Below, one piece after another: positions 1,286-34,730 of a stretch of DNA of 34,730 nucleotides; positions within the stretch are counted from its first letter, which is position 1, and each line of letters starts with the position of its first letter. The position numbers were made by a program, and so were the translations under genes. The stretch is from Octopus sinensis (lineage: Eukaryota), in assembly GCF_006345805.1 (NCBI RefSeq), contig NW_021831940.1, positions 1 through 34,730 on the forward strand, in the 5' to 3' direction. The notes beneath the pieces were generated by a model. That model made no database searches. It was not told the origin of the DNA and saw only the letters and a list, made by a program, of their open reading frames with translations.

Positions 1286-1689
1286 ACTATTGAAGTTGCC
1301 ATCTCAATCTGCTTCAACCTCCACCCTCCCGATTCTACGGGCTTCACAACAGGATATCTAATGCTACAAAAAGCAGCCAAATCTCACACAAACTATTTTT
1401 GGCTCATACGTACACAATCTGTATCGAATGCCTATGGGTTATTTCTACACAAATATGACCCTCGATTTTGCCTCCTTTTAACTGGAAGAAAGGTTCATAT
1501 TTTAGTAAAATTTTTGACATATGTGTACATGCTGATTATATTGGAATTCTTTTAGAAAAAGTTTTATCCTAGAGGTGGGGAGAATTTCAAAAATTCCAAT
1601 ATCGGCATTTTTTGGACTAAGAAAGCTTTGATGAAATAATGAAAGAAATATGCAATCAATCTACTAAGTCCTCTGAATGTCCTGAAAGA

Positions 1690-4600
1690 AAGGACTGCGC
1701 TTTGTTGCGAAGGAGCTTCACGCTATGATCTTGACATTGTTGCTTTATCTGAGACAAAACTTTCTTTCTACCATGCTTTGAAGGGCATTATAAGAAATAT
1801 CCCTCGGGCAGACAAAGTCATCGTACTGGGTGACTTTAATGCTAGAGTGGGTAGGGATCTTAACACATGGACTGTAATTGGAAAGCATGGGGGGTGGGGA
1901 AGTGTAATAGTAATGACATGCTTTTGCTGCACATGTGTGAAGAGCTGAGTCTCGTGTTACCAATACCATGTTTCATCAACCAAAGAATAAGCTTAGGACT
2001 AAAGAATGGCATATTCTGGATTACATCCTAGTTAGGGTGCGTGACAGACAGGATGTGCAGTGTGATCGTGTTCTTCGTGGAGCTGAGTGTTGGACTGACC
2101 ACCGCCTAGTACGACGTTTGCAACAGTGAAATTAGTCACAAAAACATAAAAATCCGAGCTGCAGGGATGATCCTGCCTAAAAGAATGAATGTTGGTATAA
2201 TAGTGTGAAGAGAACTTTACGAGAGGAAATGAATGCTGCAGATATTGCGGGGGGAAGATTGGCCGAACCTCAAAAGTCAGTTTATGATATAGGCAAGAAG
2301 TTCTGGGATTGATACAAAGAAAGCATCAAGATGGTTCAAAGAAAATGATGAACATATAGATGATTTATTGGCTGATAAAAGGCGTACTTTGTCACGCTAT
2401 TTGTCAGCAAAGTCACAGGAAAGGGAAGTGTTGCATAGGGAACTCAAGGACGTAAATCACGTGTGAGGCAAAGGCTCTCTCAGATGAGGGATACGTGGTG
2501 TGGAGTAAGAAGGCTGACGAGATACACAGGCGGCATGAGATTCCAATAATACAAAGTTGCTGTATGGTCTCTTGCGAGAAGTTTAGGACCGACGTCTTCC
2601 CTGATGACACCAATTCGAAGCAGGGATGGTAAAGAAGTTCTTCATGATTCACAGGAATTCTGCGAAGGTGGCAAGAACACTTTGATGAACTTTTGAATCA
2701 ACAGTCTGTAGTTAGTGAGGATGTTCTCAATCTCATCCCTGGATTGCCTGTGAAGGCAGCACTCGCAGAACCACGAAAGTTGGAAGACGTTGCAATGGCT
2801 GTCTCAGGTTGTTGAATAATGGGAAGTCTCCGGGTATGGATGGCATACATGCGGAGTTGTTACAGTATGGTGGTGAGAAACTTCTGCAGAAACTTCACTC
2901 TTTGTTTGGTAAGATATGGACAAGTGAATCTGTACGAGGACTGGAGAGATACAGTAATGGTGGAAGGGAAAGGGCAGCAAGAATGATTGTGGTAATTATA
3001 GGAGAGTATCATTGCTGTCTGTTGTAGGAAAGGTTTTATGCATGGTACTTCTGGATCGTCTGCTGAAATCCGTTGCAGACTGTGTTCTTCAAGAAAGTCA
3101 ATCTGGCTTTCGTGTGGGATGTGGCACTGCTGATATAATCTTTTCAGCTAGACAGCTTCAGGAGAAGTGTGGAACAGGGTCTGGATTTGTATCAGGTTTT
3201 GTAGATCTGACAAAAGCCTTTGATACCGTCAATAGAAAAGCATTGTGGAAAGTCCTCCAGAAACGTGGGGTGTCCTGAAAAGTTCCTTGCTTTGGTTAGG
3301 TCTTTTCATGAAGACATGAATGGTAGGGTGAATGTTAGAGGGAAAATGTCGGAGCCCATTGCAATACAAAATGGAAATAGGGGGAGGGGATATCCTGGCA
3401 CCGACCCTATTTGCCATATATCTTGCGATGGTGTTCTGTATTGCATTCAGAAACTGCAGATACGGTGTTTACATCCATTATCGAACCTCTGGCAGCATAT
3501 TTAATATCAGGCACTTTGCTGCGAAAACAAATGCATTTACCTCTATCATGAGAGACCTTTTGTATGCAGATGATTGTGATCTAGTAGCACACACAGAGAT
3601 TGGTATGCAACACATTTTTAATGCATTCTCTGATGCTTGCACTGCCTTAGGATTGACAGTGAATCTCAAGAAAACTGTTGTCATGCATCAATCTGCCCCT
3701 GGTAAGCAGTATAGTGTACACAAATATCTATGTGTATCTTAAACGACTTGATGTAGTTGATCAGTTTGTCTACCTGGGAAGCACTATTATAGATATAGCA
3801 ATTTGGATGATGAAATTCCACATAGAATAGGAAAGCAAGTGTTGCTTTCGGAAGGGTAGAAAAGCGCCTCTGGAGTCGGCGAGACATATGCAGAAAGACA
3901 AAGATAAAGGTGTACAAGGCATGTGTGCTCCCTTCTCTTCTCTATGCCTGCGAGACGTGAGTCACATATCGATACCACTTTAAACAACTGGAACGTTTCC
4001 ATCAGATGTGTCTTAGACGGATCTATGGGCATTAAGTGGAAGGACCGCATCAGTGATCTTGAAATATTGAAGGCTCTCGGTGTGAAAGTGTAGAAGAGCT
4101 CTTGTGTTAAAGCGAAGGCTCAGATGGAGTGGTCATCTGGTCAGGATGAAGGATTCAAGGATGCCAAAACAACTCTTTCATGGAGAGTTAGCTAAAGGAG
4201 AACAACCTCCACATAAACCAAAAGAGAGGTATAAGGACTTGCTGAAGGCTTCCTTAAAAGATGCTTGCATCTCTCCTGACACAGGGGAAGGCATAGTTAT
4301 TGATCGTAGCTGGGGGAGAAGGATTGTGTACGAGGGGGACAGCCACTTTTGAGAAATCTCGAGTGGCACATAAGAAAGTAAGGAGGGATGTCAGGAAGCG
4401 CATCGCTGATACACTTCCAGATGGGAAGGGTCTTCCTATGATGCTGACATGCAGTGTCTGTGCAAGACCCTGCCTCAGAAAAGCTGGACTCAAGAGTCAT
4501 CTTCGTAGTTAAAGCGAGAAAGATGAGAAAGATGAAAGTGACAACTGGCCACTGGTGGTGGTGTAACACACCATACAAATAATATCTGCCGGGCATGCAA

Positions 4601-6252: not shown

Positions 6253-6669
6253 TAACCAGAAAAGTTTATATTCTCTTAACTACATAATTAAGGGAGATAA
6301 CTGAAAATCAACTTTTAGAGTTACTTCCCTTTACATATCAATAAAAGACATGACAGTTTAAGATGTAGGTGCGTTTGTTTTTCGCATGCGAAGGGCACGC
6401 TTGCATTCCTGCAAGAAGAGACAAACATACACATGCAAATTTTCTGCTGTTCACTTTAACAAATAAACATTATAATTTACATTTAATTACACCCGAAAAC
6501 TATGTAAAGTACACCCTATCCAGTACTACCCTTTGGACATGATCGGTTTTTCTTTTGTTTTAGATAGTATATATGCGTATGTGGGTATAGACACGTCTAT
6601 ATGTATGAATGCATGCTTATGTATATTAAATATATATTATATATGATATATGTATGAAACAAATCGCTT

Positions 6670-7848
6670 GCCGTGAATTACCGTCCAATCTCACTCACCT
6701 CTCATATCATTAAGGTATTTGAGAGAGTGCTGAGATCGCGTATGACTCACTTCCTTGAGAGTCATATGCTGAACTCCAACCAGCATGGATTCCGTAATGG
6801 AAGAGATTGCCTGACGCAGCTACTGCATCATTTTGATGTCATTTTGAGAGCCTTGGGAGAGGGCTCCAACACTGATGTCATCTTCCTTGATTTCAGCAAG
6901 GCCTTTGACAGGGTTGAACATAAGATCCTTCTGAGAAAGCTGTCCAATATTGGTGTCACTGGAAAGCTGCTGCAGTGGATCAAGTGCTTCCTGTCTAACA
7001 GAACCCAACATGTTGTAGTCGAAGGAGTCAAATCCAGCCCAGCCAAAGTCAGCAGTGGTGTCCCACAAGGCACTGTGTTGGGCCCACTTCTCTTCATCAT
7101 CTACATAAATGATATTACTGACACCATCAAACACAGTAACATCAGAACCTTCGCTGATGATTCCAAGCTCCAGAAGGTCATCAATGGCGTGGATGACCGA
7201 ATAAGCCTTCAGTCAGACCTACTGGCTGTTGTCCAATGGGCGGAAAAGAATAACATGTTACTAAACGAAGACAAATTCGAACTGATCCACTTTGGAAGGG
7301 AGGACGCTCTAAAACTCCCATACTCTCTTCCTTCTGGAGAAATTCTCATGGCGTCTAACAACATCAGAGACTTGGGAGTAACAGTGGACAACAACATAAG
7401 CTGGGCTACACATATAAGCAGCAAAGTTGATATGGCCCGCAGAATGTGTTCCTGGATTCTCAGAACCTTCCAGTCGAGAGATTCCCACACCATTATCCTT
7501 CTCTTCTCCACTTTTTCCCGACCCCACCTTGAATACTGCTGTCCACTACACAAAAAAAAATATTATGAGAATTGAAGCTCCCCAAAGGTCAATCACAAAA
7601 AAGATAGATGGCATGTCAGACCTTGACTACTGGGGTAGACTAGAGAAACTGAAACTGTATTCACTCCAACGACACCGTGAACGCTACATTAACTGTATGA
7701 TGTGGAAAATATTCCATCAGCACTGTCCGAATGATGCTGGCATCACCTTCGAAATACATCCAAGGCTTGGACCACGTGCCATCCGTCCACAACAAAAATC
7801 TAAATCGCATCTCATAACAACAATACGGTACAATCATTTTATCTCAAT
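6670..7848 (+). mobile_element. 5'-truncated CR1/L2-group LINE, RT domain (ORF 6673-7575, continuing after a frameshift to ~7848)
   Basis: NYRPISLTSHIIKVFERV, QHGFRNGRDCLTQLL, FLDFSKAFDRV, GVPQGTVLGPLLFIIYIND, FADDSKL, RPHLEYCCP, RLEKLKLYSLQRHRERY. Confidence 0.95.
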
Positions 7849-7971
7849 TGTATGTATGTATATATATATAGTTATATGCATGTATATATATATAGATATA
7901 TGCATGTATATATAGATATATATATATACATACATACATATATACATAAATACATATATACATACATATAT

Positions 7972-8499: not shown

Positions 8500-8567
8500 T
8501 GTCCGGCTCTGTTTGAAGGAATTTGTCCAGAGACTTCTTGAATTTTGTGTGGTCAGTTTCTTTTTTG
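8500..8567 (-). mobile_element. CR1-type LINE ORF2 C-terminal fragment, inverted
   Basis: Minus strand translates KKETDHTKFKKSLDKFLQTEPD, like the CR1 C-terminal FKxxLDxFLxxxPD motif also seen at ~29270. Confidence 0.6.
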
Positions 8568-8575
8568 ACGTGTCC

Positions 8576-8832
8576 CGTCAAATGCTAGAATTCTGAAGAG
8601 ATATACGTTGGCCAGACTTGGAATGCACTAGTGGAACGGTCACGTGTGCTCCAACAGTAAATAAGAGATCCTGATGTCGGCCAGATGATCCCTTAAACCG
8701 ACCACTGGCAACTTGTGGTCTACACAACTGAAGACAAGGCGAGAGAAATGTTAGAGAGGAAAAATTTATTGATAAACTGAAACCATTTTAAATGGGCCAA
8801 AACTAATAATAGTTAGTAACGGTGATGACTGG
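8576..8832 (+). mobile_element. Penelope-like GIY-YIG 3' fragment (left arm of inverted repeat)
   Basis: NSEEIYVGQTWNALVERSRVLQQ; near-identical reverse complement of 10783-11043. Confidence 0.85.
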
Positions 8833-10783: not shown

Positions 10784-11645
10784 TTCCAGTCATCACCGTT
10801 ACTATAACTATTATTAGTTTTGCCTATTTAAAAATGGTTTCAGTTTATCAATAAATTTTTCCTCTCTAACATTTCTTTCGCCTTGTCTTCAGTTGTGTAG
10901 ACCACAAGTTGCCAGTGGTCGGTTTAAGGGATCATCTGGCCGACATCATGATCTCTTATTTACTGTTGGAGCACACGTGACCGTTCCACTAGTGCATTCC
11001 AAGTCTGGTCAACGTATATCTCTTCAGAATTCTGGCATTTGATGCAGTAAATTAAATTTCTGCTTTTGCAGTTCATATTTACATTTGCAAATATTCTTCC
11101 GTTTATTTTTTGTTGCAATATTGACCGATATGTATGAACTGACATGTCCCACATCGATTATCATTGTACTTAGACACAATGAATGATTCGTATTGTTGCT
11201 AAGATCACACTTTGCCTTTATTAAATGTTTCAAGTCTTTCGACTGTCTTTTACTTAGAGCCATTACTCCATCCGTGATTATATCTTCTAATTCATTACTT
11301 TGAATAATGATCAGCAAGTTTGATTTGCAATGCTTAAGGTATTCCGGTAACATGGGTTGTGTGCCACTATTACTGGTATGATCTGTTCTCGTTTTCCTCT
11401 TCCTCGGGTGGCCCTAAGTTCTTGTATGGGTATTTCTATATCAAGCTGTACACCATTTTCTATGAGTAGAGAGGGATATTTTTGCTTGGGTAGAGATTCT
11501 TTTAGTTTTGTTAGGCTTTTGTCTCTGATTCTCACATCCTCCACAAACGTACACATTTTCTCGGCTAGGTTGTATGGGATATTGCGTTTTGTATATGTTG
11601 GATAGTAAAATTTGAAGTTCAGGTATTGAACTTTAAAGGTTATTT
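10784..11645 (-). mobile_element. Penelope-like element 3' part (RT C-terminus, linker, GIY-YIG), decayed
   Basis: QYLNFKFYYPTYTKRNIPYNLAEKMCTFV..LKESLPKQKYPSLLIENG; NCKSRNLIYCIKCQNSEEIYVDQT. Confidence 0.88.
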
Positions 11646-12349
11646 GATCTGTTTTGGTGACACAATTCGTGACACCAAAATATCTTTAGAATTGCCAAAG
11701 CAAACTTGACGATCGTTGTTCAAAGTAATGAATTGAAGAATAATATATATATTGATTTAGCTTCCAGACATTCTTTTCCGGACACAGTGTTTGTTATCAT
11801 GAGACTCCTTATTGCACACAAACGTAGTAATTATGCTCGCTTCTCTTTTGGTTTGCTAAAGCTTTATCTTTCTATAGCATTTGGTCAGTTCTTGCTTCAG
11901 CCTGCTTCTTCATTGAAGCGGAGGTCTCCAATGATTACGTTGAAGCAATTCCATAGTAACAAGTTTCTTTTTGTTTATAGGTGATCAAAGTATTCATGTG
12001 ATTCTTCAAAACTGTATCTGGAATCTGGGACATAAATTTAGAAGATGGTTAACATTCCCTGTGGCATCGAGAGAAACACTCATTAGTCTCTCTTAATAAG
12101 AGACGTAGGAATTTATATATTTTGCGAATGTTTTTCTTCCATTAAAGCTACTCCCTGTCATGTAATGTTATCTCTTCTGCATAAATAAATGATAACATAC
12201 TTAACCATTTTAAACTCGATACCTTGCAGATAAGGAAGGACATTTCAAACCCAGTAAAGCTGTAGAGATAGCAGAGAAAGACTGGGTACCCTTATGAGAT
12301 GGAAAAAAGTTGCACTCGAACCCGTATTCCTCAGACATCGACTGAATTG

Positions 12350-14229: not shown

Positions 14230-15298
14230 ATTAGATGGAGTAAGCAAATTAATGCTGAAAACGGCAGAATCCGCATACTTCGCCTCGATGAATGACTCTC
14301 ACCTCTCTGACTCGTAAATAATTTATGGCACCAATTTATGAAAAGAAATGAGGCTCCAGAAATATATAACGCGTAACGTTATTAGACCTTCGATCCAGCG
14401 CCCGCGCAACACTCAGCTGATCACAACACAGGGTTCAATAAATGTCCAATAATTTTATGATAGTTATTTTAACCAATCTCAACAGAGTAGCGTGGTGAGC
14501 TTTCAGAAACTAACTTAATGTTTCCAAATATACAATAATAGAAATTGGTCTCGCTACACATCTATCATGTCCATATGTTCAGAATATTGCTATTGGTCAG
14601 AATTTTACTATTCGTCCAGGCATTATAGCGGAATATGCAAGGGAACAGCACTTCCCTTCTTGGAGCCCATAGCCAAGATGTGGATGTAACTAATCCAGAA
14701 TTTGATTCTTCGATAAACCTTGTGCTAACCATTACGGTTTATAATCTACTAGTTCCATTTATATGTTGTGTTTGTATAGGATTCAACATCTTCGTGCAGT
14801 CACGTATTAAAGCTTGCTTGTCAGCCTGGACGTATTACAAATTGTCTGTTGTATGTCATATTTTCACAAGATTGTAAGTACTGCAACTACGTGTGACAAG
14901 CACCCAATATAGGTTAAGTGTTGTATATTGAGGTAAGGCACAGATGTGTAGATGTCTGTAGATGTGTTTTTGAACATTGTGAACCTGCAGAGTTAGATTC
15001 ATAACCAGGTTGTTCGTCACAGTGCTTGTAGTATATTGGGGGCTCATCGTTGTAGAACCTATGGAGATTGTGGGCAATGGTATGGAGGAGGGGCCATATG
15101 AGGACCGAAAGGCAGAGAGAAACAGATCAAGGAGAAGTAAGTTATAGTGTGAAAAATAATGAAGAATGATTATGTTTGTGGTTCACAATGAAGAGAGAAA
15201 ATATGTTAAACGAAACAGCGGAGATGAAAAACAATTATAAAAATGTTGAACGTCTTTGCTGGATTAATTCTCCACGCGCAGGGAAGCAACATGTGATA

Positions 15299-15361
15299 TG
15301 AGAGAGAGAGAGAAGCATGGAGTGATGAGGGAAGTGTATGGGAGAGGCAAAGCTATAAGAG

Positions 15362-15406
<45 letters not shown>

Positions 15407-15430
15407 AGCAAAAGAGATAGAGAGTGAGTG
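15299..15430. repeat. (GA)n microsatellite region
   Basis: Visible. Confidence 0.9.
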
Positions 15431-15539
15431 AAGGAGAAATGTCATGGAGACAGATGTGTTTTCTTCACTGAAAGGAGAATAGAGAAAATATGTGTTCACA
15501 GATAATAACGAAGAGAGGAAATATATATTTTAAAACTTT

Positions 15540-15725
15540 TTCCTTTATTTCAGCCATGGGACTGCAGCCATGCTGGAGGAGGTGGAGGGCCCCTGGAATA
15601 AGTTTTAGTCGAACGAATTGACCCTAGTACTTTTTTCTCAGTATGGTGAAAATTGCCCAAAGTGCCATGTCACACGATGAGACCGAAAATAAAAACGGAA
15701 TTATGCGGTTGGGAAGCAAACCTAA
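15540..15725 (-). mobile_element. Decayed SINE (tail plus head remnant)
   Basis: tttcagccat.ggactgcagccatgctggag..tttagtcgaacgaattgaccctagtact is the reverse complement of the SINE tail at ~6160-6230; gcccaaagtgcca..ggttgggaagcaaac resembles the head. Confidence 0.65.
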
Positions 15726-16412
15726 TATTGATGGTCTCAGACGAAATATGGGGAAAATGGGCTATGAAAACGAATAGCATTATATACAGATTAATTACAC
15801 AACGCAAAGGAAATAATCACACTGAATGGTTCTTATGTTGAACATGTCAAAGAGAGCTGTGTAGTATCCGTCGCACTAGACACACAGGTTAGAAAAGACA
15901 GGTCACGCTAGCATGTATAGCATTTGAGAGATTTAAGAAACAGGATCTGGAGCTTGTAGGACATCAGCCAGGGTTGCATTGATAGTTTGCATATTTTTGC
16001 TTCTCTAATCAGGGTCTAGAAACACATACGTAAGTGGTTATTAAAATGTGTTTAAAACTAAAGAGATATTATAATGAGAGTAGCGTAATTTGTATAAGAA
16101 ACGTTACTTACATGACATAAACCAGAACTGAAGTAGTCAGATGGAAGAGAGTGAAATGGTGCGACCATCTAATTAGGAGGAAACTAATAAATAATTCCTT
16201 AGTTCAGTCGATGTACCAAGACATCTAAAACCACAGGCCATATAATAAGTGGTAGAAATGACAGAGCTGTTACGATAAACGGCTCCATATATCTTTTAAC
16301 AGCAACAAGCAGAGTATAAAAGAAGGGCGGAGCGGTGTTCCGGCTGGCAAGAGAGCGACCAATGATCCGGAAAACAGGAGCTAAAAAGCACACACATACA
16401 TAGACAGACAAG

Positions 16413-16450
<38 letters not shown>

Positions 16451-16493
16451 TAGACACATGGACTATTGGTTCGGTGCGTTCTGTCCACGAGAA

Positions 16494-17923
16494 AAACACT
16501 TCCACTGGACTCATCTGAGAAGAAATACCAACAACAACCAGGGGTTAAACTTGCAACAGACTGGCATCTCTTTTAGTGGGGTGTCTTCTATCCCCGGGTG
16601 TTGGAATATGTTGGATACCGAAAGAGACTGCGGCCTAATGGGCCTGAATATCATGTAGAGAGTATAACTAAGAAACTACTTCAATGAAGACATTGAGGCG
16701 TGCGCAGTCTCGTGTAAGTGTAACATTGATGGAATGAAAGTAGACATGAACGTGAAGAAGACGAATCTGCGTCCGGTGCTTTGATTGGAATGTAGCTGTT
16801 TGTGAAATGTTGATTACTTGAACAATGACAGTTGAATGACCTGATAATACTAATTAGATAAATGATCGTAAATCTAATCTACATGATACATTTTGCAAGT
16901 TTTAACATTTTAGTGGAATGTTTAAAATAACAAATGGAATCAATGCCTCTCCCGGTGGTATTTGATCTTAGTCTGCGGTATTACAGTATTTCATCTAGAA
17001 AACGAACGGTAGCAACAGATCAGATTTAATCCTTTATTTAACAATTCTAAAGCTTACATTGATAACATTAAATTGGCAAGAAGATAGAATATCAATATAA
17101 TTTCAAATCATGCAATATTTTCTGTTTCAAGCCATAGTGAGGCCCTGAAACTCGTTTAAATTACATTATGGTGGATTATACAGTCTCATGCATGCATAGT
17201 GTTGTATTGAAAGGTACAATTATAGTGTCGTTACAAGGAAAGAATATTTTATATTATATATGGAGAAAATATTATTTAATATTATATATGGAGAAAATAT
17301 AATTTTATATTATACATAGAGAAAATATTATTTCATATTATATATGGAGAAAATTTTATTTTGTATTATATATTAAGAAAATTTTATTTTATATTATATA
17401 TGGAGAAAATATAATTTTATATTATATATGCAGAAAATATTATTTTATATTATATATGGAGAAAATATCGTTTTATAGCATAAAATATCATCAAAGACGA
17501 TTCTTGGAGGCTCTTTTTCGATTTTCACTCAAAAGTTTGTTTCTGCTGTTCTATCTTCTGTTCCATTACCAGTACTTGAACCTGGAAACATAATGAAAAA
17601 AACATAAAATATAAAAGTTTAAGCACATTAATTACCGGATAGTATGAATTTGTATATATATATGTTTATTTCTTACTATTCGAACTGTTAGAGCTGTTTT
17701 CGCTATGTATCCAGTACAGCCCTTAAACAAGTAAATAATATTTCCCTAAACAATAGATCAACGTATTTCAGTTTGTGACTGATTCACGAATATACCATGA
17801 ATGACGATGCCTTTCATGTTACTTCAGCCAATTGACAAGCGCTGATGGAAGGACGGTTCTGCTTTGAGACAAATACACTGTCAACACAAAGGTCACATCC
17901 TGTTTACATGTAGGAACACTTTC
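16494..17923 (+). repeat. Copy 1 of a dispersed direct duplication (copy 2 at 32398-34730)
   Basis: Continuous high-identity match by eye; lacks the SINE found in copy 2. Confidence 0.97.
17245..17476. repeat. 28-bp AT-rich minisatellite, ~8 units
   Basis: atattatatatggagaaaatattatttt; tggagaaaat recurs at 17261, 17289, 17345, 17401, 17457. Confidence 0.92.
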
Positions 17924-18102
17924 CTAAAATCTATCTGTACATCTTGAAAATGGCCAGCGTGTATATTTCACAGAAGACAATGCTCGAAACGTAGATCTGA
18001 ATCCATGAGAAACTACTTTGACAGCTTTCTTCAAATTATGCCAATGTGATCTGTTTGCCCGAACACTGTTGTACGTAGAGATCCCCGTGTACTCTACCTG
18101 GG
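17914..18102 (+). mobile_element. Helitron Rep/helicase fragment
   Basis: LSVHLENGQRVYFTEDNARNVDLNP*ETTLTAFFKLCQCDLFARTLLYVEIPVYSTW, the conserved block following the Helitron Rep domain. Confidence 0.88.
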
Positions 18103-19929
18103 CACACAATATATATATGCACACATATATTTATTCATTTATATATTTTTTTAAATAATAAATAACATGACCATCCCGAAATATGTATGTGTATATGTAT
18201 ATATATTTTTACATTTTCTCGAGCAATATATAATTTGTTACGGGATTTGACTAGTAAAAATGCTATTGTCTGTTTCGCGGCCTCTATTGTTGCATTTCCT
18301 CAATATTGACCACTACTTAGACATACTGACCGGATGCGCATAATCCTCTTTTATGCTGGAAATAGATAGACTTTATATTGATTTGGCAGTGGTAAAAGGA
18401 AATGAATGGAAACGGAGTGAAAGAAATTGTATCATTGTTCGGCAATGGGATGTGATTTATTCCTCTTTTATATCTCTTAGAGATGAGTTAAAGCGTATGA
18501 GCTGTGTGTGTATCTATCGATCCTAATTCAAAAATTAATATGATCACTTCGAACAAAATGAATTTTCGCTGAGGAAAATTATTTGCAGCACTAAATAGAT
18601 TTCCTGTTTGAATTAAAGCAAGTACTAGAATTGTGTGAATTATTCTGCCCAGTAGAGTCTGCATCTTCTACTTCTATACAAAATTAGAAGAAAACATTTT
18701 TGCCCTCGGTTAGACAAACAGTTCCGTAGGGACAAGAAACGGAAAAGCGCAAAATAAAATGCTGATTTATTGAAATTATCCAAGCTTTGAGAAAATGTAA
18801 ATAAATAGTTGTATGTAAGAGAGAGAGGGGGAGAGTCTGTGCGCTTGCGTGCACGCGTGGGTGTCCTAAGGTATCATCCGTTGTGGTTGATGATGACGAC
18901 AACGACGAAGAGGATGGTATGGTGATTGATGAAGCTAATTATGACGGTAATGGTGTTATAAAAATGAAGAAACACGATACTTACTTTCATCAAGCAAATT
19001 CATGTTGAGCAATGCCTGGAATTGGTTCAAACCTTGGGAGATATTGCGCCGCAGTTGACTTTGAACACTTAAAGAGATTAATTGTTTTGTTTCAATTATT
19101 TCTATATTCAAATATAACTTAGGATTGGATCATCATAGGTAAAATAACCGCATTCAGTATGGTTGAGAACAGAATTAGTGAAGAAGGCTAAAACTACAAG
19201 CGGGTGACTAAAAGTTGGTGTTAAGAACATATTCGTCCAGTACCGTGGCTTGCCCTCTTTAGCATGTAAGAAATCCACATGGTGGTCTTCCCTCTGTGTA
19301 TAGTTTTTATATACATTTTATATATATATAATTACCTGGTTGGTTTTAAAATGTGTGTTAGCTACCTTCAATATATTATAATCTTCACATTGCCATTTTG
19401 GGAAATCAATCACTCTTTTTATGTCATTCTCAAAGATATTGACAGGCGTGAGTTAACCTCCACCAGCCGTAATGGAGTGAGCATTGCTGATGAGTATTAA
19501 CTTCTTATAAGAAATTACCATGCTAATCTAATCCATCTGGCTTACCGTAGGGAATGTTGTCCCCCTCTGTCAATGTACCATATGTTTTTATGGCTAAGGT
19601 GTCTATGACTATAATTTAACACAATCACTGGTAAAAGTTTGCAAGACTCAACGAAAAGTTTTAGGAAAATAAAAATAAGAAATACGTTGAAATGTTACCG
19701 GTGAGTGTGTGGAATTATAAGGCACAAGAAGAAAATGGCTCTCCCCAGACACAACAGAATATGCTTCAACACACGAACTCATATAAAGAATCTTGCAAAC
19801 CAAATCCCAAAACGAAATAGTCTATGACTAATATTTCTAATAATGCTGGTGCTCACTGCACTCTTGTCACCTTTAGTGATTGTGAATTATTTCCCTGTTG
19901 GTCTTAAAATGCTGATAGCCGCCTTGATT

Positions 19930-19972
19930 TATATATACACGCTCATATATATATATATACATACATACATAC

Positions 19973-20043
<71 letters not shown>
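19930..20043. repeat. (TA)n microsatellite
   Basis: Visible. Confidence 0.95.
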
Positions 20044-20104
20044 ATACTTTCGTATATGTAAGTATATCGTATGTTGTATATGTATATATTTGTATTTATT
20101 TGCT

Positions 20105-20184
20105 TTTCTGAGTATATTCCACTGATGAAGGCAGAGCATTTCTTATGCAGAGTCAGAAATCCGGGATCTGGAATTATCCAGAAA
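20105..20184 (+). ncRNA. Type I hammerhead ribozyme fold with minimal stem III (PLE/retrozyme-like)
   Basis: tttctg..attcca-CUGAUGA(20122-28)-a-ggc-aga-gcat-ttctt-atgc-aga-gtc-a-GAAA(20156-59)-tccggga-UC-tggaat..cagaaa; stem I is 6+6 bp around an internal loop; predicted cleavage after AUC at 20168. Confidence 0.75.
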
Positions 20185-20373
20185 TGTTTGCTATTCTATT
20201 TTGTCTCTTCGTCTTCTCTCCTGGTGCTATATGAACATTTAATGTGGCTCTAGAGTCAAGATTTGACTGCTATTACCCAATATTATAATTTAAATAATTG
20301 TTACCTTTGATGTTTTTTATTCCCATGCTGGCCACCTGATAAAATCGATATTTAAATATTGATCTTATCCTTC

Positions 20374-20426
<53 letters not shown>
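20374..20426. repeat. (TG)/(TA)n microsatellite
   Basis: Visible. Confidence 0.95.
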
Positions 20427-20429
<3 letters not shown>

Positions 20430-23400
20430 TTGGCATCCTTTTTGTCTCAGGAGACAATGGAGTTGCGCATAAAATAGTCCAGTCCGGCTTTTATATTTCA
20501 TATCCTGATACATTTCCTGCTGTGGCTGTGTAGTCCTATCCTGGACAAACACTCCCTCTGGCAGGTACCGCAAATATAGCGAAGACTGTTCCTGGCTGGT
20601 TGTAATGTCATAGTTTCTTGTTTACGTCTCTTCTTTTCTTTCTAGTTCTCCTCTCTCTCTCTGTCACTCCTTTGTATTCCCTCTTTTACTGTACGTCGCC
20701 ATTCTCCACGGTTGCCGGCAACTGCCTCCCAACCGCTAATATTGATGTTGCAGGCCTTCATGTCCCTTTTGCAAACATCCTTGTAACGTAAGAGCGGTCT
20801 AACCACAGACCTAGTACCCCTAGCAAGCTCTCCGTAGAGTATGTCCTTGGGGATTCTGCCATCTTTCATACGGCTAACATGCCCAAGCCATCTCATACGT
20901 CTTTGTGTGAGGAGTGCAAACATGCTTGGTATTCCTGCTTGCCTGAGGACATATTTGTTGGGGATATGATTCTGCCATTTGATGCGGAGGATTTTTCGGA
21001 GGCAGCGCAGGTGAAAGATGTTTAGGTGAGGCTCTTGGCGTGTGTATAGCGTTCAAGTCTCACTTCCATACAGTAGAGTGCTGAGTACACATGCCTGGTA
21101 GATCTTCATTTTCGTGGTCTTGATCAGCTTATTGTTGTCCCAAGCCCGTTTAGAGAGTTGGGCCATCGCAGCAGCTGCCTTTCCAATGAGTATATTGAGC
21201 TCAGCATCAAGGGATAGGTTGTAGGTGACGGTAGAGCCCAGATAGGTAAACTGTGGTCTCCAATATGTATGTTTGGGATGTCCGATGTAGCCTGACCCAT
21301 GATGTTGGTCTTCTTAAGGCTGATAGCTAAGCCAAAGTCGTTACATGCTTGCTCAAAACAGTCAATGAGCCTTTGGAGGGCTTCTTCTGTGTGTGATACC
21401 AGAGCGGCATCATCAGCAAATAGCATCTCCTTGATCAGGACGTTTCTGATTTTGGTCTTGGCACACAAGCGCGAGAGATTGAACAGATTCCCGTCACTTC
21501 TACTGTGCAGAAACACTCCATCATCTGATGTCTGAAAGGCTTGTGAGAGTAAGAGCGAGAAGAAGATGCCAAACAATGTAGGAGCGAGGACACAACCTTG
21601 CTTTACCCCGTTTTTTATTTGGAAGGCGGCTGATGTTGAACCGTTGTGCTGTAAGGTGCCTTGCATGTCATCATGGAAAGACTTGATGATCCTCAGCAGC
21701 TTTGGTGGACATCCGATTTTTTGGAGCAGGATGAAGAGGCCTGTTCTGCTTACCGAGTCAAAAGCCTTTTTTATATCAATGAAGGCCATATATAATGGCA
21801 TTTTCTGCTCTCTGGACTTCTCCTGAAGTTGGCGTACGGAGAATATCATATCGATAGTTGATCTGCTTCTTCTAAAGCCACACTGCGATTCCGGATAGAT
21901 ACGAGAAGCAAATAGTTGTAGCCTTGCCAGGATAACGCGGGCAAAGGTCTTTCTAACAGTGCTTAGAAGAGATATACCACGGTAATTGTTAAAATCAACA
22001 CGGTCACCTTTGTTTTTGTAAAGCGTAATGATGTTAGCATCCCGCATATCCTGAGGGACTGTACCCTCTTCCCAGCACTAACACAGAAGCTCATGAAGAT
22101 GCCGAAGCAGGATGGTGTTTTTGCCGGCTTTGACGATATCTGAGGGGATGCCGTCTTTTCCCGGATCCTTGTTTCTTGCTAGGGAGTCAACAGCCTTGAT
22201 GAGCTCTGCTATAGATGGCGGACTGTCAAGTTCGCACATGACTGGCAAGATCTTGAGACTCTCGACTGCAGCCTCAGCCACTGTAGTCTCCCGTGAGTAG
22301 AGATCCTGGTAGTGCTCCACCCATCTATCCATTTGCTTGCCTTGATCCGTGATGAGATCTCCAGAGGGGCTGACTTGGTTGCGGATGGACCGAGGGCCTT
22401 CTTCAAACCGGCATACATCCCACAGGTGTCGCCACTGTCAGCAGCTGACTGGATACTCTGACAGATTTCCTGCCAATACCCATTTGCACAGCGTCTGGCT
22501 GTCAGTTGGGTTTTATTTCGTGTCTTTCTGAGTTCTTCGAGGGACTTTGTAGAAGAATCACTCTTGTATTGCATCAGAGCTGCACGCTTTGCTTCGATAA
22601 CTGGCTCCAGCTCTGAGAGCCCAGCATTGAACCAATCTGGGTTTTGCCTTTCTCTCATGCCGAAAGTATCTATTGATGTCGTATACAAAGCTTCCCTGAT
22701 ATAGTTCTACCTACTTTCAGCAGAGGAGGTTGGGCAGCTACTGAGGGCAACCTTGATAGAAGCAGCAAAACATTTTCGCAGTGTAGGTTCCGAGGTTCTG
22801 GCAGTGTTAATGCGTGGTCGGCCCACTTTCTTGAAGCGATGGACTTTTTTAGGCAGAATCCTCACCCTACTTCAAATTAGTGAGTGGTCTGTGTCACAAT
22901 CCGCGCTGTGGTAACTGCGGGTCAATAGAGTAGAATTCAGAAAGGATCTCCATGTAATGATGAGATCCAGCTGATGCCAGTGGTGAGATCTTGGATGTCT
23001 CCAAGATGCCTTGTGGGAGGCTTGTTGGTAAAGAATGTGTTTGTGATGCACAGGTTGTGGTATGTGCAGAATTCGAGTAGTCTCTGACCATTGTCATTCA
23101 TTGTTGCCAATACCAAAGTGTCCAACACAAATGGGCCACGAATCATGGTCAGATCCCACGCGAGCGTTAAAATCCCCCAGAGGTTAGATATTTTCAGTCG
23201 TTGGTATATTTTCTATGACACAGTTGAGATCTTTGTAGAACTGGTACTTGGTCTCCTCTGAGCTGTAGAGAGTGGGAGCAGACATGCTGAGTAGATGTAC
23301 GGAGCCAGAAGAAGTCGAGAGGCGCAGTGAGGGGATACGCTCAGTGCCTCCTGATGGTGGTTCTATTGAGGAGAGTAATGAGTTTCTCACTGCAAAGCCA

Positions 23401-24241
23401 ACGCCATGCTGACGAGGTTCTTCTGGATCGCTTCCTGCCAAAAGGAGGTGAAATCCTGCTCTTTGAGTTTGCCGTTTGAGGGGAGACTTGTCTCCTGCAG
23501 CCCAGCAATATCTATGTTGATCCTCTTTAGTTCACGGTCAATGATGGCCTTTTTCCTTGTGTCTTCAACCCTGAGTAGATCATCAGATATTCCAGGGCAC
23601 ATGGTCCTCACATTCCAGCTTGCCAACCGCACAACTGGTGTTTTCTTGACTTTTAGTTGTTTGCCTGGTGCAGAGGTTGCAGGCCGCTTTTCAAGTCATA
23701 CTCTTAGCTTCAAGCACCCAATGAAGCAGGTGACCTGTGGCGGGTCAGCACCTTATTAACTGGCGGCTGCCCAGCTTGAGGTGGGCAGTAGCTAACCAAT
23801 AGGACACGAAGGTCCCTCCCACCGTCAGAGGTAACCCGTAGCGCCCATATTTTACGCCAATCTAAATAGACTTATCACTCGTGACTGTTACCTCCCGTGT
23901 TGATTCTGCAGCTTTTAACAGCAGCACTGAAGTGTCCTCTCCAGGTTTGCGCAGGCCTGGGCTATAGATAAGAAAGTCCTGAGTAACCCAATCGTCAGGT
24001 TTCCTCTCTCGACCTTGCTGATGTAGTCCAGTGGAGTGCAGTGCATTACGTTTGGCACCAGCTTGGTTGCAGGAGCTGCCGGAAGAGTGTCGAGTCGAAC
24101 ACTAGACCGCCTTCGGGGCTCCACTCCGGATTTCTTTGAAGGTTGTCTCCTTTCCGTAACCCTGGATAGGGGCCCATACCGGGTACTGTCAGCCGGAGCC
24201 AGCTGAGCCCGGAACTCGTGTCAGGCAGGGTCGTCACTCCC
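20427..24241 (-). mobile_element. Near full-length RTE (BovB-like) LINE with disrupted ORF
   Basis: RLASWNVRTMCPG, DIAGLQET, HGVGFAVRNSLL, NDNGQRLLEFC..LCITNTFF (EN); DANIITLYKNKGDR..NYRGISLLS, YPESQCGFR, GVKQGCVLAPTLFGIFF, MLFADDAALV (RT); RWLGHVSRMKDGRIPKDILYGEL; CGTCQRECLSRIGLHSH; 3' end ccattgtctcctgagacaaaaaggatgccaacc; GC-rich 5' UTR. Confidence 0.95.
24158..24241 (-). ncRNA. Candidate decayed HDV-like ribozyme at the RTE 5' end
   Basis: Minus strand: P1 GGAGU/GUUCC, P2 ACCCUG/CAGGGU, L3-like UGACACG, P4 GGGCUCA/UGGGCCC, J4/2-like CUAUC; P3 imperfect. Confidence 0.4.
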
Positions 24242-24356
24242 AGAAGTAGTGAAGAAGTTCGCTACCCACTACCTTTTCAAGTAATGTTAAATTATTATTA
24301 GATTTTTCATTCTTTTTCCTACGTTTGTTTTATGTTTATTTTCAGCCACTAATATT

Positions 24357-32397: not shown

Positions 32398-34730
32398 AAA
32401 CACTTCCAGTGCAGTCATCTGAGAAGAAATACCAGCAACAACCAAGGGTTAAACTTGCAACAGACTGGCATCTCTTTTAGTGGGGTGTCTTCTATCCCCG
32501 GGTGTTGGAATATGTTGGATCCCGAGAGAGACTGCGGCCTAATGGGCCCGAATATCATGTAGAGAATATAACTAAGAAACTACTTCAATGAAGACATTGA
32601 GGCATGCGCAGTCCCGTGTTAGTGTAACATTGATGGAGTGAAAGTAGACATGAACGTGTAGAAGACGAATCTACGTCCGGTGCTTTGATTGGAATGTAGC
32701 TGTTTGTGAGTGGAGGCGCAATGGCCCAGTGGTTAGGGCAGCGGACTCGCGGTCATAGGATCGCGGTTTCGATTCCCAGACCGGGCGTTGTGAGTGTTTA
32801 TTGAGCGAAAACACCTAAAGCTCCACGAGGCTCCGGCAGGGGATGGTGGTGATCCCTGCTGTACTCTTTCACCACAACTTTCTCTCACTCTTACTTCCTG
32901 TTTCTGTTGTACCTGTATTTCAAGGGCCGGCCTTGTCACTCTCTGTGTCACGCTGAATATCCCCGAGAACTACGTTAAGGGTACACGTGTCTGTGGAGTG
33001 CTCAGCCACTTACACGTTAATTTCACGAGCAGGCTGTTCCATTGATTCGGATCAACCGGAACCCTCGTCGTCGTAACCGACAGAGTGCTCATGCAAGGGG
33101 TGGTGGTGATCGTTGCTGTACTCTTTCACCACAACTTTCTCTCACTCTTACTTCCTGTTTCTGTTGTACCTGTATTTCAAAGGGCCGGCCTTGTCACTCT
33201 TTGTGTCACGCTGAATATCCCCGAGAACTACGTTAAGGGTACACGTTTCTGTGGAGTACTCAGCCACTAACACGTTAATTCCACGAGAAGGCTGTTCCGT
33301 TGATTCGGATCAACTGGGACCCTCATCGTCGTAACCGACAGAGTGCTCCTACAGGGGGTGGTGGTGATCCCTGCTGTACTCTTTCACCACAACTTTCTCT
33401 CACTCTTACTTCCTGTTTCTGTTGTACCTGTATTTCAAAGGGCCGGCCTTGTCACTCTCTGTGTCACGCTGAATATCCCCGAGAACTACGTCTCTGTGGA
33501 GTGCTCAGCCACTTACACGTTAATTTCACGAGCAAGCTGTTCCGTTGATTCGGATCAACCGGAACCCTCGTCGTCGTAACCGACGGAGTGCTTCCATTCC
33601 AGTTGTTTGTGAAATGTTGATTACTTGAACAATGACAATTGAATGACCTGATAATACTAATTAGATAAATGATCGTAAATCTAATCAACATGATACATTT
33701 TGCAAGTTTTAACATTTTAGTGGAATGTTTAAAATAACAAATGGAATCAATGCCTCTTCCGGTGGTATTTGATCTTAGTTTGCGGTATTACAGTATTTCA
33801 TCTAGAAAACGAACGGTAGCAACAGATCAGATTTAATCCTTTATTTAACAATTCTAAAGCTTACATTGATAACATTAAATTGGCAAGAAGATAGAATATC
33901 AATATAATTTCAAATCATGCAATATTTTCTGTTTCAAGCCATAGTGAGGCCCTGAAACTCGTTTAAATTACATTATGGTGGATTATACAGTCTCATGCAT
34001 GCATAGTGTTGTATTGAAAGGTACAATTATAGTGTCGTTACAAGGAAGAATATTTTATTTATATATGGAGAAAATATTATTTAATATTATATATGGAGAA
34101 AATATAATTTTATATTATCATATAGAAAAATATTATTCATATTATTATATATGGAGAAAATTTTATTTGTATTATATTAAGAAAATTTTATTTTATTTAT
34201 ATATGGAGAAAATATAATTTTATATTATATATGCAGAAAATATTATTTTATATTATATATGGAGAAAATATCGTTTTATATAGCATAAAATATCATCAAG
34301 ACGATTCTTGGAGGCTCTTTTTCGATTTTCACTCAAAAGTTTGTTTCTGCTGTTCTATCCTCTGTTCCATTACCAGTATTTGAACCTGGAAACATAATGA
34401 AAAAAACATAAAATATAAAAGTTTAAGCACATTAATTACCGGATAGTATGAATTTGTATATATATATATGTTTAATTCTTACTATTTGAACTGTTAGAGC
34501 TGTTTTCGCTATGTATCCAGTACAACCCTTAAACAAGTAAATAATATTTTCCTAAACAATAGATCAACGTATTTCAGTTTGTGACTTATTCACGAATATA
34601 CCATGAACGACGATGCCTTTCATGTTACTTCAGCCAATTGACAAGCGCTGATGGAAGGACGGTTCTGCTTTGAGACAAATACACTGTCAACACAAATGTC
34701 ACATCCTGTTTACATGTAGGAACACTTTCT
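32398..34730 (+). repeat. Copy 2 of the dispersed duplication, interrupted by a SINE; runs off the window end
   Basis: Matches 16494-17923, including the 28-bp minisatellite (~34048-34280). Confidence 0.97.
32710..33603 (+). mobile_element. tRNA-derived SINE with one head and three tandem bodies, flanked by a TSD
   Basis: A-box TGGCCCAGTGG 32722-32, B-box GGTTTCGATTCC 32765-76; ~255-bp body x3 (~32838-33090, 33091-33348, 33349-33592); TGTTTGTGA duplicated at 32701-09 and 33604-12. Confidence 0.93.

Follow-up and report, generated by a model that had tools for sequence, protein, structure and literature searches.

Between two TA-repeat tracts on a contig of Octopus sinensis (NW_021831940.1, assembly GCF_006345805.1) lies a short stretch that reads like a hammerhead ribozyme. 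The locus raises the question of whether this motif is more than a chance resemblance, what kind of element carries it, and how such an element could have come to sit in a TA repeat. A sequence-only reading of the window (the whole stretch of 34,730 nucleotides analysed here) had placed a type I hammerhead at positions 20105-20184, within a non-coding module of about 300 bp, and had proposed a non-autonomous retroelement mobilised by Penelope-like elements. Here we follow the motif through the genome assembly, which was searched over 2.72 Gb in 13,516 contigs. Our comparisons with published systems draw on parts of the cited texts.

Anatomy of the hammerhead

All of the pieces named by the sequence-only reading (core, stems and cut site) sit where they had been placed, and the hammerhead motif at 20105-20184 is confirmed as real and more than chance. 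The complete catalytic core is present (CUGANGA, GAAA and UH) and the geometry is that of a canonical type I hammerhead. On the plus strand, helix I pairs 20116-20121 with 20169-20174 over 6 bp and is followed by U1.7 (3' strand with U1.7, 20169-20175). The catalytic box C3-A9, CUGAUGA, occupies 20122-20128. Helix II (20129-20155) has four positions, an A·A mismatch at 10.1·11.1 (A20129·A20155) and three base pairs (GGC, 20130-20132, with GTC, 20152-20154), and is prolonged by a 3x3 purine internal loop and a 4-bp hairpin (GCAT, 20136-20139, with ATGC, 20145-20148). Finally, 20156-20168 comprises G12-A15.1, a near-palindromic helix III and U16.1-C17: GAAA covers 20156-20159, helix III (ATCC-G-GGAT) covers 20159-20167, and the cut is predicted after C17 at 20168. 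The earlier reading had overlooked the basal mismatch of helix II as well as the purine loop that interrupts this helix, and the mismatch deprives the window copy of the near-universal paired 10.1-11.1 position of a type I hammerhead.

Other parts of that description need correction. The hammerhead is not minimal, as had been claimed: the lengths of helices I and II are canonical, and it is the autonomous Penelope elements of this genome that carry minimal hammerheads. In the published minimal type, helix I has 4-5 bp, helix II has 7-8 bp, one base after A9 is unpaired and 10.1-11.1 is G-C (PMC4209133); the hammerhead described here and its relatives do not fit this scheme. The distal stem of helix I (tttctg/cagaaa) stood in part. 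Across 30 sequences of the window copy's family, which we call family A, the inner three pairs (20108-20110 with 20179-20181, plus strand) are paired in 29, 24 and 23 and belong to the whole family; the outer three, paired in 16, 13 and 5, do not. About 60 nt upstream of the core, GTAAGT at 20058-20063 (plus strand) resembles a 5' splice site, and like motifs are found in sister families; its use as a donor is putative. The module holds no credible ORF, as had been stated, since no ATG ORF longer than 60 aa overlaps it, save a 66-aa frame in the TA repeat that ends at its edge.

The model search that had been suggested as a check was negative, as the Rfam hammerhead models gave no match to the window at E values up to 5 and 10, and no match at the gathering threshold in seven loci of related families either. 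Folded by itself, the 91-nt hammerhead stretch does no better than its shuffles (z -0.19), with pair probabilities of about 0.7-0.8 for helix I, 0.2-0.3 for helix II and 0.06-0.07 for helix III. Because the stretch folds like shuffled sequence and has no Rfam match, the window sequence alone is weak evidence, and the case rests on the copies.

Conservation of the fold across copies and families

Related copies that keep the core and the stems proved abundant in the genome. A 29-mer of the hammerhead has 102 exact matches and a family A 23-mer from outside the hammerhead has 771, and both reversed controls have 0. A core pattern, constrained at nothing but the core, the spacing and three pairs, has 3,309 matches, versus 8 for the reversed pattern; the 100 core matches that were listed sort by eye into at least six families. 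Together these families form a clan with thousands of copies in the genome.

In the first 30 core matches, the five helix I pairs that the pattern does not impose are paired in 138 of 150 cells, while shuffled controls average 95 and 0 of 5,000 reach as high, a comparison that yields no probability because the rows are related. All 30 have U1.7, and loop 2 ends in an A in 29 of them; these are the bases that make the contact between loops 1 and 2, a contact that is predicted here. The 6-bp helix I and the four-position helix II recur, helix III is near-palindromic throughout, and 10.1·11.1 is paired in only 13 of the 30, the mismatches falling in several sister families.

Within family A (30 sequences), pairing reaches 87.5% in the structure and 20-43% once the structure is slid, and helix I is 95% paired, with changes from C-G to A-U and U-A. 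Among 36 copies chosen by whole-unit similarity, N7 is T, A or C in 21, 11 and 3 copies and is the sole base of the catalytic box with common substitutions; the other catalytic positions show scattered changes only, the mean column variation being 8%. The A·A state is fixed in family A (242 matches, versus 4 with A-U), and in the subfamilies that bear it both helix I and the hairpin show compensatory changes. The sister family B has the same layout, with stems that are changed but still paired and with A-U at 10.1-11.1. This fixes the register, so that the two extra As of the window copy are the 10.1·11.1 mismatch. The covariation that the sequence-only reading had asked for is therefore there, in the form of compensatory stems across sister families. 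With three helices backed by covariation and helix I open, the fold is that of a type I hammerhead, and the pattern of substitutions indicates that it is under selection.

Repeat unit and families

The module of about 300 bp turned out to be too short, as mapping 90 loci onto a natural copy gave family A a unit of about 480 bp without an ORF. Family B, met by chance beside a Penelope ORF, has a 479-bp unit and 519 exact 23-mer matches. Units are AT-rich (GC 0.30-0.32) and copies are dispersed over all large contigs. At least five further unit families bearing a hammerhead exist besides A (loci L186-L215 and the core matches listed); in all of them a donor-like motif precedes helix I, and the 3' ends are of the same two kinds.

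The tandem arrays that the sequence-only reading had proposed to look for are in evidence in part. Head-to-tail partial tandems of up to about 2.8 units occur at family A loci, and tandems with two or more hammerheads were found at L039, L048 and L083 (family A) and at L175 and L178 (family B); no long array is among the listed matches, and most loci, like the window copy, have one hammerhead or none. At least a quarter of the words sampled from the unit are present in sequencing runs under four organism labels, no RNA run being listed among these; the family thus probably predates any single species. Contigs from six runs that we guess to be RNA cover parts of both family units, although such contigs cannot show expression, strand or ends. 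In these contigs there is no joint at the donor-like motif in the family A or B unit, and no pile-up of ends is listed.

The window copy and its duplicated segment

The window itself carries a 5'-truncated family A copy at 20040-20372 (plus strand), equivalent to about 89-470 of the roughly 480 unit positions and with an internal deletion of about 25 nt; window 20031-20390 matches unit 89-481 at 81%. Its 5' junction lies in the upstream (TA)n tract (19945-20046), the insertion target, and another (TA)n tract follows at 20382-20426. The first of two preferred 3'-end sites, CCC followed by a TATA palindrome, lies at 20274-20291 (plus strand), the hairpin that precedes it elsewhere being deleted in this copy, and the second lies with the terminal hairpin (GATAA...TTATC) at 20338-20372 (plus strand).

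The copy is embedded in a duplicated segment, distinct from the element, that extends at least over 15030-24304. The upstream flank, along with as much as 9 kb of this segment, is common to about 21 near-identical copies. Paralogous segments have the TA tract equivalent to 19945-20046 without the element: nine of ten can be followed through the tract with the element absent, and L365 continues into the shared downstream flank. A single insertion thus took place, and duplication of its segment then multiplied it. The window copy, a passenger of this duplicated segment of at least 9 kb, is truncated and has probably lost its mobility.

The duplicates of the segment are clustered on contig C29 and occur also on C1, C5, C14, C25 and small contigs, and a part of the segment is found again at window 32398-34730. 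A 28-bp minisatellite (17245-17477 and 34051-34281) lies within the segment, in which no gene was identified. Most of the paralogous segments (L365-L373) carry a different insert of about 170 bp at the equivalent TA tract; the minus strand of this insert bears a CTGAAGA box, and the insert has no clear hammerhead. Beside the element, a decayed LINE at 20428-23800 (minus strand), which we take to be RTE-like, has an RVT_1 match and is present in only some copies of the segment. Further decayed LINEs lie at 1600-4600 (plus strand) and 6658-7900 (plus strand, with an RVT_1 match), and a 258-bp unit is repeated at 32838-33592 in three tandem copies that are 91% alike.

Insertion anatomy

How the copies were inserted was read from the first 100 listed matches of a non-ribozyme 23-mer per family, which gave 85 family A loci after merging overlaps and 79 of 86 fetched family B loci, four overlaps and three presumed duplicates being left out. 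Inverted 5' pieces are found at 46/85 family A and 51/79 family B loci, and tandems across the unit junction at 9/85 and 14/79. The favouring of TA repeats, first suspected from the window alone, is strong: the 3' end meets (TA)4 or more at 66 of 85 loci in family A and 69 of 79 in family B, versus fractions of 0.11 and 0.14 for positions drawn at random from those loci. Two sites, at about unit 371-390 and 471-480, account for 121 of the 162 piece ends in family A, and the 5' ends scatter. Each of the two 3'-end sites is a TATA-containing palindrome behind a hairpin, and sister families end at equivalent sites.

Pieces that extend to the start of the unit follow on from its own tail in 29 of 44 cases in family A (4 more by eye) and in 32 of 39 in family B; the remaining starts follow an inversion, TA or unique flank, and never another shared sequence. 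Its own tail is the only conserved sequence found before the unit, which is therefore closed on itself. The 5' truncations, partial tandems, inverted 5' copies and (TA)n targets are insertion features that, together with the TA bias, have been described for Penelope-like elements (PMC8557442). The proposal of a non-autonomous, multi-copy element bearing a ribozyme thus finds support in an anatomy of Penelope type and in the absence of an ORF.

Penelope-like elements in the genome

Autonomous elements that could serve such a hitchhiker do exist in this genome. GIY-YIG domains are abundant (the best 150 of 5,029 candidates were scored), and intact ORFs of 781 aa and 775 aa combine reverse transcriptase and GIY-YIG domains and carry the cysteine linker that marks the Neptune type (PMC8557442). 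A Naiad origin was dropped because the intact elements have a C-terminal endonuclease. The window, too, has decayed Neptune-type pieces at 10820-11660 (minus strand) and 8553-8785 (plus strand), inverted around a long (ATT)n tract and sharing about 65% protein identity with the intact 775-aa family at L153. Of the proposed mobilisation by Penelope-like elements, the Penelope-type anatomy stands, but a link between the window copy and the Penelope remnant 8.5 kb away is rejected, as the remnant is a decayed copy of another family.

The 781-aa family is young, with intact ORFs at several loci (for example L151:2032-4374), an upstream ORF of about 480 aa and a 3' UTR that ends in (TA)n. At L151, an intact 781-aa Penelope element is flanked by a pair of identical family B copies (G000:C1:207473500 and 207479435) at a distance of 5,935 bp; because further SINE-like and TA sequence separates them, the pair probably arose by local tandem duplication. 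Minimal hammerheads were read behind the GIY-YIG ORFs at L109, L104, L154 and L151. Some have a swapped 3-8 pair, A3-U8 at L109 (about 2065-2110, ORF strand) and U3-A8 at L104 and in the 781-aa family, and that of the 775-aa family has a U·U mismatch at 10.1·11.1. The A3-U8 core is not mentioned in the portions of the hammerhead papers that were compared.

It could be argued that the copies are solo pseudo-LTRs (pLTRs) or 3'-end fragments of autonomous Penelope-like elements whose ORF copies are rare or lost, the hammerhead serving to process a precursor RNA. We regard this as improbable. The insertion anatomy is admittedly the same as that of Penelope-like elements, the donor-like motif just upstream of helix I recalls the intron of Penelope pLTRs (PMC4209133), Li et al. 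derive retrozymes from pLTRs (10.64898/2026.07.22.740005), and one autonomous family in this genome shares a mismatch, U·U, at 10.1·11.1. Against these points stands the lack of any co-linear ORF: the element has no reverse transcriptase and GIY-YIG ORF of its own, and no Penelope ORF runs into the unit at any of 317 element loci, duplicates included. Nor does any of the top-scoring GIY-YIG loci (30 loci and 5 longer stretches) carry the clan hammerhead or unit; the hammerheads legible behind the ORFs of these 35 loci are minimal and unrelated in sequence. Moreover, what precedes the unit starts is only unit tails, inversions or unique flank.

Predicted cleavage and a model of spread

Our best reading is that the unit is a non-autonomous Penelope hitchhiker resembling non-LTR retrozymes. 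It appears to us rather likely that the unit, which is predicted to self-cleave, would do so as a dimer, form a circle and be copied into (TA)n by Neptune-type Penelope enzymes. In this model, tandem or read-through transcripts would be cut at the hammerhead, the palindromic helix III being swapped between two copies at cleavage, and the unit-length RNA would be ligated into a self-paired circle. The GIY-YIG endonuclease of a Neptune-type Penelope-like element would nick (TA)n, and the freed TA end would prime on one of the two internal UAUA sites. Reverse transcription past the unit junction could then produce the partial tandems, and a second primer from the other strand meeting this synthesis could produce the inversions. 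The A·A mismatch may lower activity rather than abolish it. A circle-template model has been proposed for Penelope-like elements by Cervera & de la Pena 2014 (PMC4209133).

Computed folds are consistent with a dimer, as helix III is self-complementary in 8 of 9 positions and its dimer duplex reaches -9.9 kcal/mol, while the monomer gives no hammerhead fold. The whole unit is highly self-paired, with two natural units folding better than their shuffles (z -4.0 and -4.8) and the truncated window copy reaching -2.0. The 5' ends of insertions offer a possible footprint of cleavage. In family A, 10 ends fall 1-8 nt after the predicted cut, a density of 0.024/nt versus 0.006 upstream (post hoc p 0.0009) and 0.011/nt downstream (p 0.04). 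Family B has no such excess (3 ends, p 0.49), and that of family A coincides with an AATT microhomology, which could explain it.

Several observations count against the preferred reading. The pair that is broken, 10.1·11.1, is the most conserved of the hammerhead; the monomer does not adopt the hammerhead fold in silico; most copies are solo or truncated instead of forming the arrays typical of described retrozymes; and none of the 35 top-scoring GIY-YIG loci revealed an autonomous partner with the same ends. In addition, only 1 of 9 predicted Xenopus dimers was cleaved in the work of Li et al. (10.64898/2026.07.22.740005). As to the mismatch, Perreault et al. 2011 (PMC3088659) found U·U, rather than A·A, to be the one best tolerated at 10.1·11.1. 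The natural variants of that study likewise relax this position, as U·U, and the portion compared does not describe the A·A, A·C or G·A (alternatively, A-bulge) states that large families of the clan have fixed. In the axolotl, HHR_Amex2 has a U·U mismatch where helix II begins; its cleavage is weak as a monomer and good as a dimer (PMC7229834). Our literature search for papers on a G10.1/C11.1 mismatch found nothing. A 2017 paper reportedly describes dimer-cleaving variants of Penelope hammerheads.

The same mismatch invites a second alternative, a linear, SINE-like Penelope hitchhiker in which the family A hammerhead has been dead or dispensable since A·A arose, the tandems being read-through of tandem sources and not of circles. 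A broken pair that was fixed in the founders, and a subfamily that even lacks the 5' A (12 of 36 copies), are what such an element would leave, as are the many insertions that span the cut site intact and the failure of family B to replicate the family A footprint; Naiad elements, too, spread without canonical hammerheads (PMC8557442). We nonetheless give it little credence, because, in the subfamilies that bear A·A, helix I and the hairpin of helix II changed in compensatory fashion and N7 changed too, with the remaining catalytic bases staying fixed, and because several sister families are independently mismatched at 10.1·11.1 (17 of 30 unpaired). A satellite or MITE-like repeat moving as DNA, with an incidental likeness to a hammerhead, is highly improbable and already largely refuted: some 21 near-identical copies, the window's included, did spread with a duplicated DNA segment, and the inverted ends are open to being mistaken for terminal inverted repeats, but the 3' ends are fixed, the 5' ends and the lengths of the inversions vary, the copies are dispersed over all large contigs, and the stems covary around an invariant catalytic core with 3,309 matches versus 8.

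Relation to known elements and implications

The retrozyme-like hitchhiker that we favour belongs to a class that is already known, the animal non-LTR retrozymes riding on Penelope-like elements, and is no new kind of system. Like these retrozymes, the clan has a canonical-size type I hammerhead in a short, AT-rich, self-paired unit without an ORF (PMC7229834; 10.64898/2026.07.22.740005), forms head-to-tail copies and occurs alongside autonomous Penelope-like elements with minimal hammerheads (PMC7229834). Unlike them, its unit measures about 480 bp, compared with 170-400 nt (PMC7229834), or with 51-972 bp for the units of Li et al. (10.64898/2026.07.22.740005). The copies here are mostly dispersed, as solo, truncated or 1-3-unit insertions that show inversions and end in (TA)n at two fixed 3' sites, helix II has an internal loop, a hairpin and the A·A mismatch, and cleavage and circular RNA are only predicted.

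With the pLTRs of Neptune-type Penelope elements the clan shares 5' truncation, partial tandems, inverted 5' copies, (TA)n targeting, an optional 3' extension, a palindromic helix III and a donor-like motif near helix I (PMC4209133; PMC8557442). It differs from them in having no ORF, a 6-bp helix I with U1.7, a four-position helix II, and an extension of about 95-100 bp instead of 30-40 bp. A tie between retrozymes and Penelope pLTRs has been drawn by Li, Clavereau & Pollet 2026 (bioRxiv 10.64898/2026.07.22.740005). Among the papers that our literature search listed, none reports hammerhead-bearing Penelope hitchhikers or retrozymes in octopus or other cephalopods, although supplementary species tables could list one, and the word 'ribozyme' is absent from the main text, as far as it was available, of a 2026 octopus repeat annotation (PMC13282606).

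It is tempting to go further and to suggest that the clan, with at least six retrozyme families and more than 3,300 intact cores that escape Rfam, relies on a hammerhead variant that is active although its 10.1·11.1 pair is broken and its loop 2 is capped by a hairpin, and that its insertions would record rolling-circle reverse transcription of ligated RNA, primed by nicked (TA)n DNA at two fixed internal UAUA sites. We offer this bolder proposal tentatively, as a possibility with the balance somewhat against it.

Our results add a large set of families in the Octopus sinensis genome. As this hammerhead variant is missed by standard models, counts elsewhere may be low. Moreover, the clear anatomy of the insertions, with two fixed priming sites, variable 5' ends and a closed unit, makes the circular-template model of Penelope-like elements directly testable. 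If the bolder proposal above holds, the clan would provide a natural substrate of 480 nt for asking by what route Penelope enzymes generate inversions and partial tandems, and what purpose their hammerheads serve.
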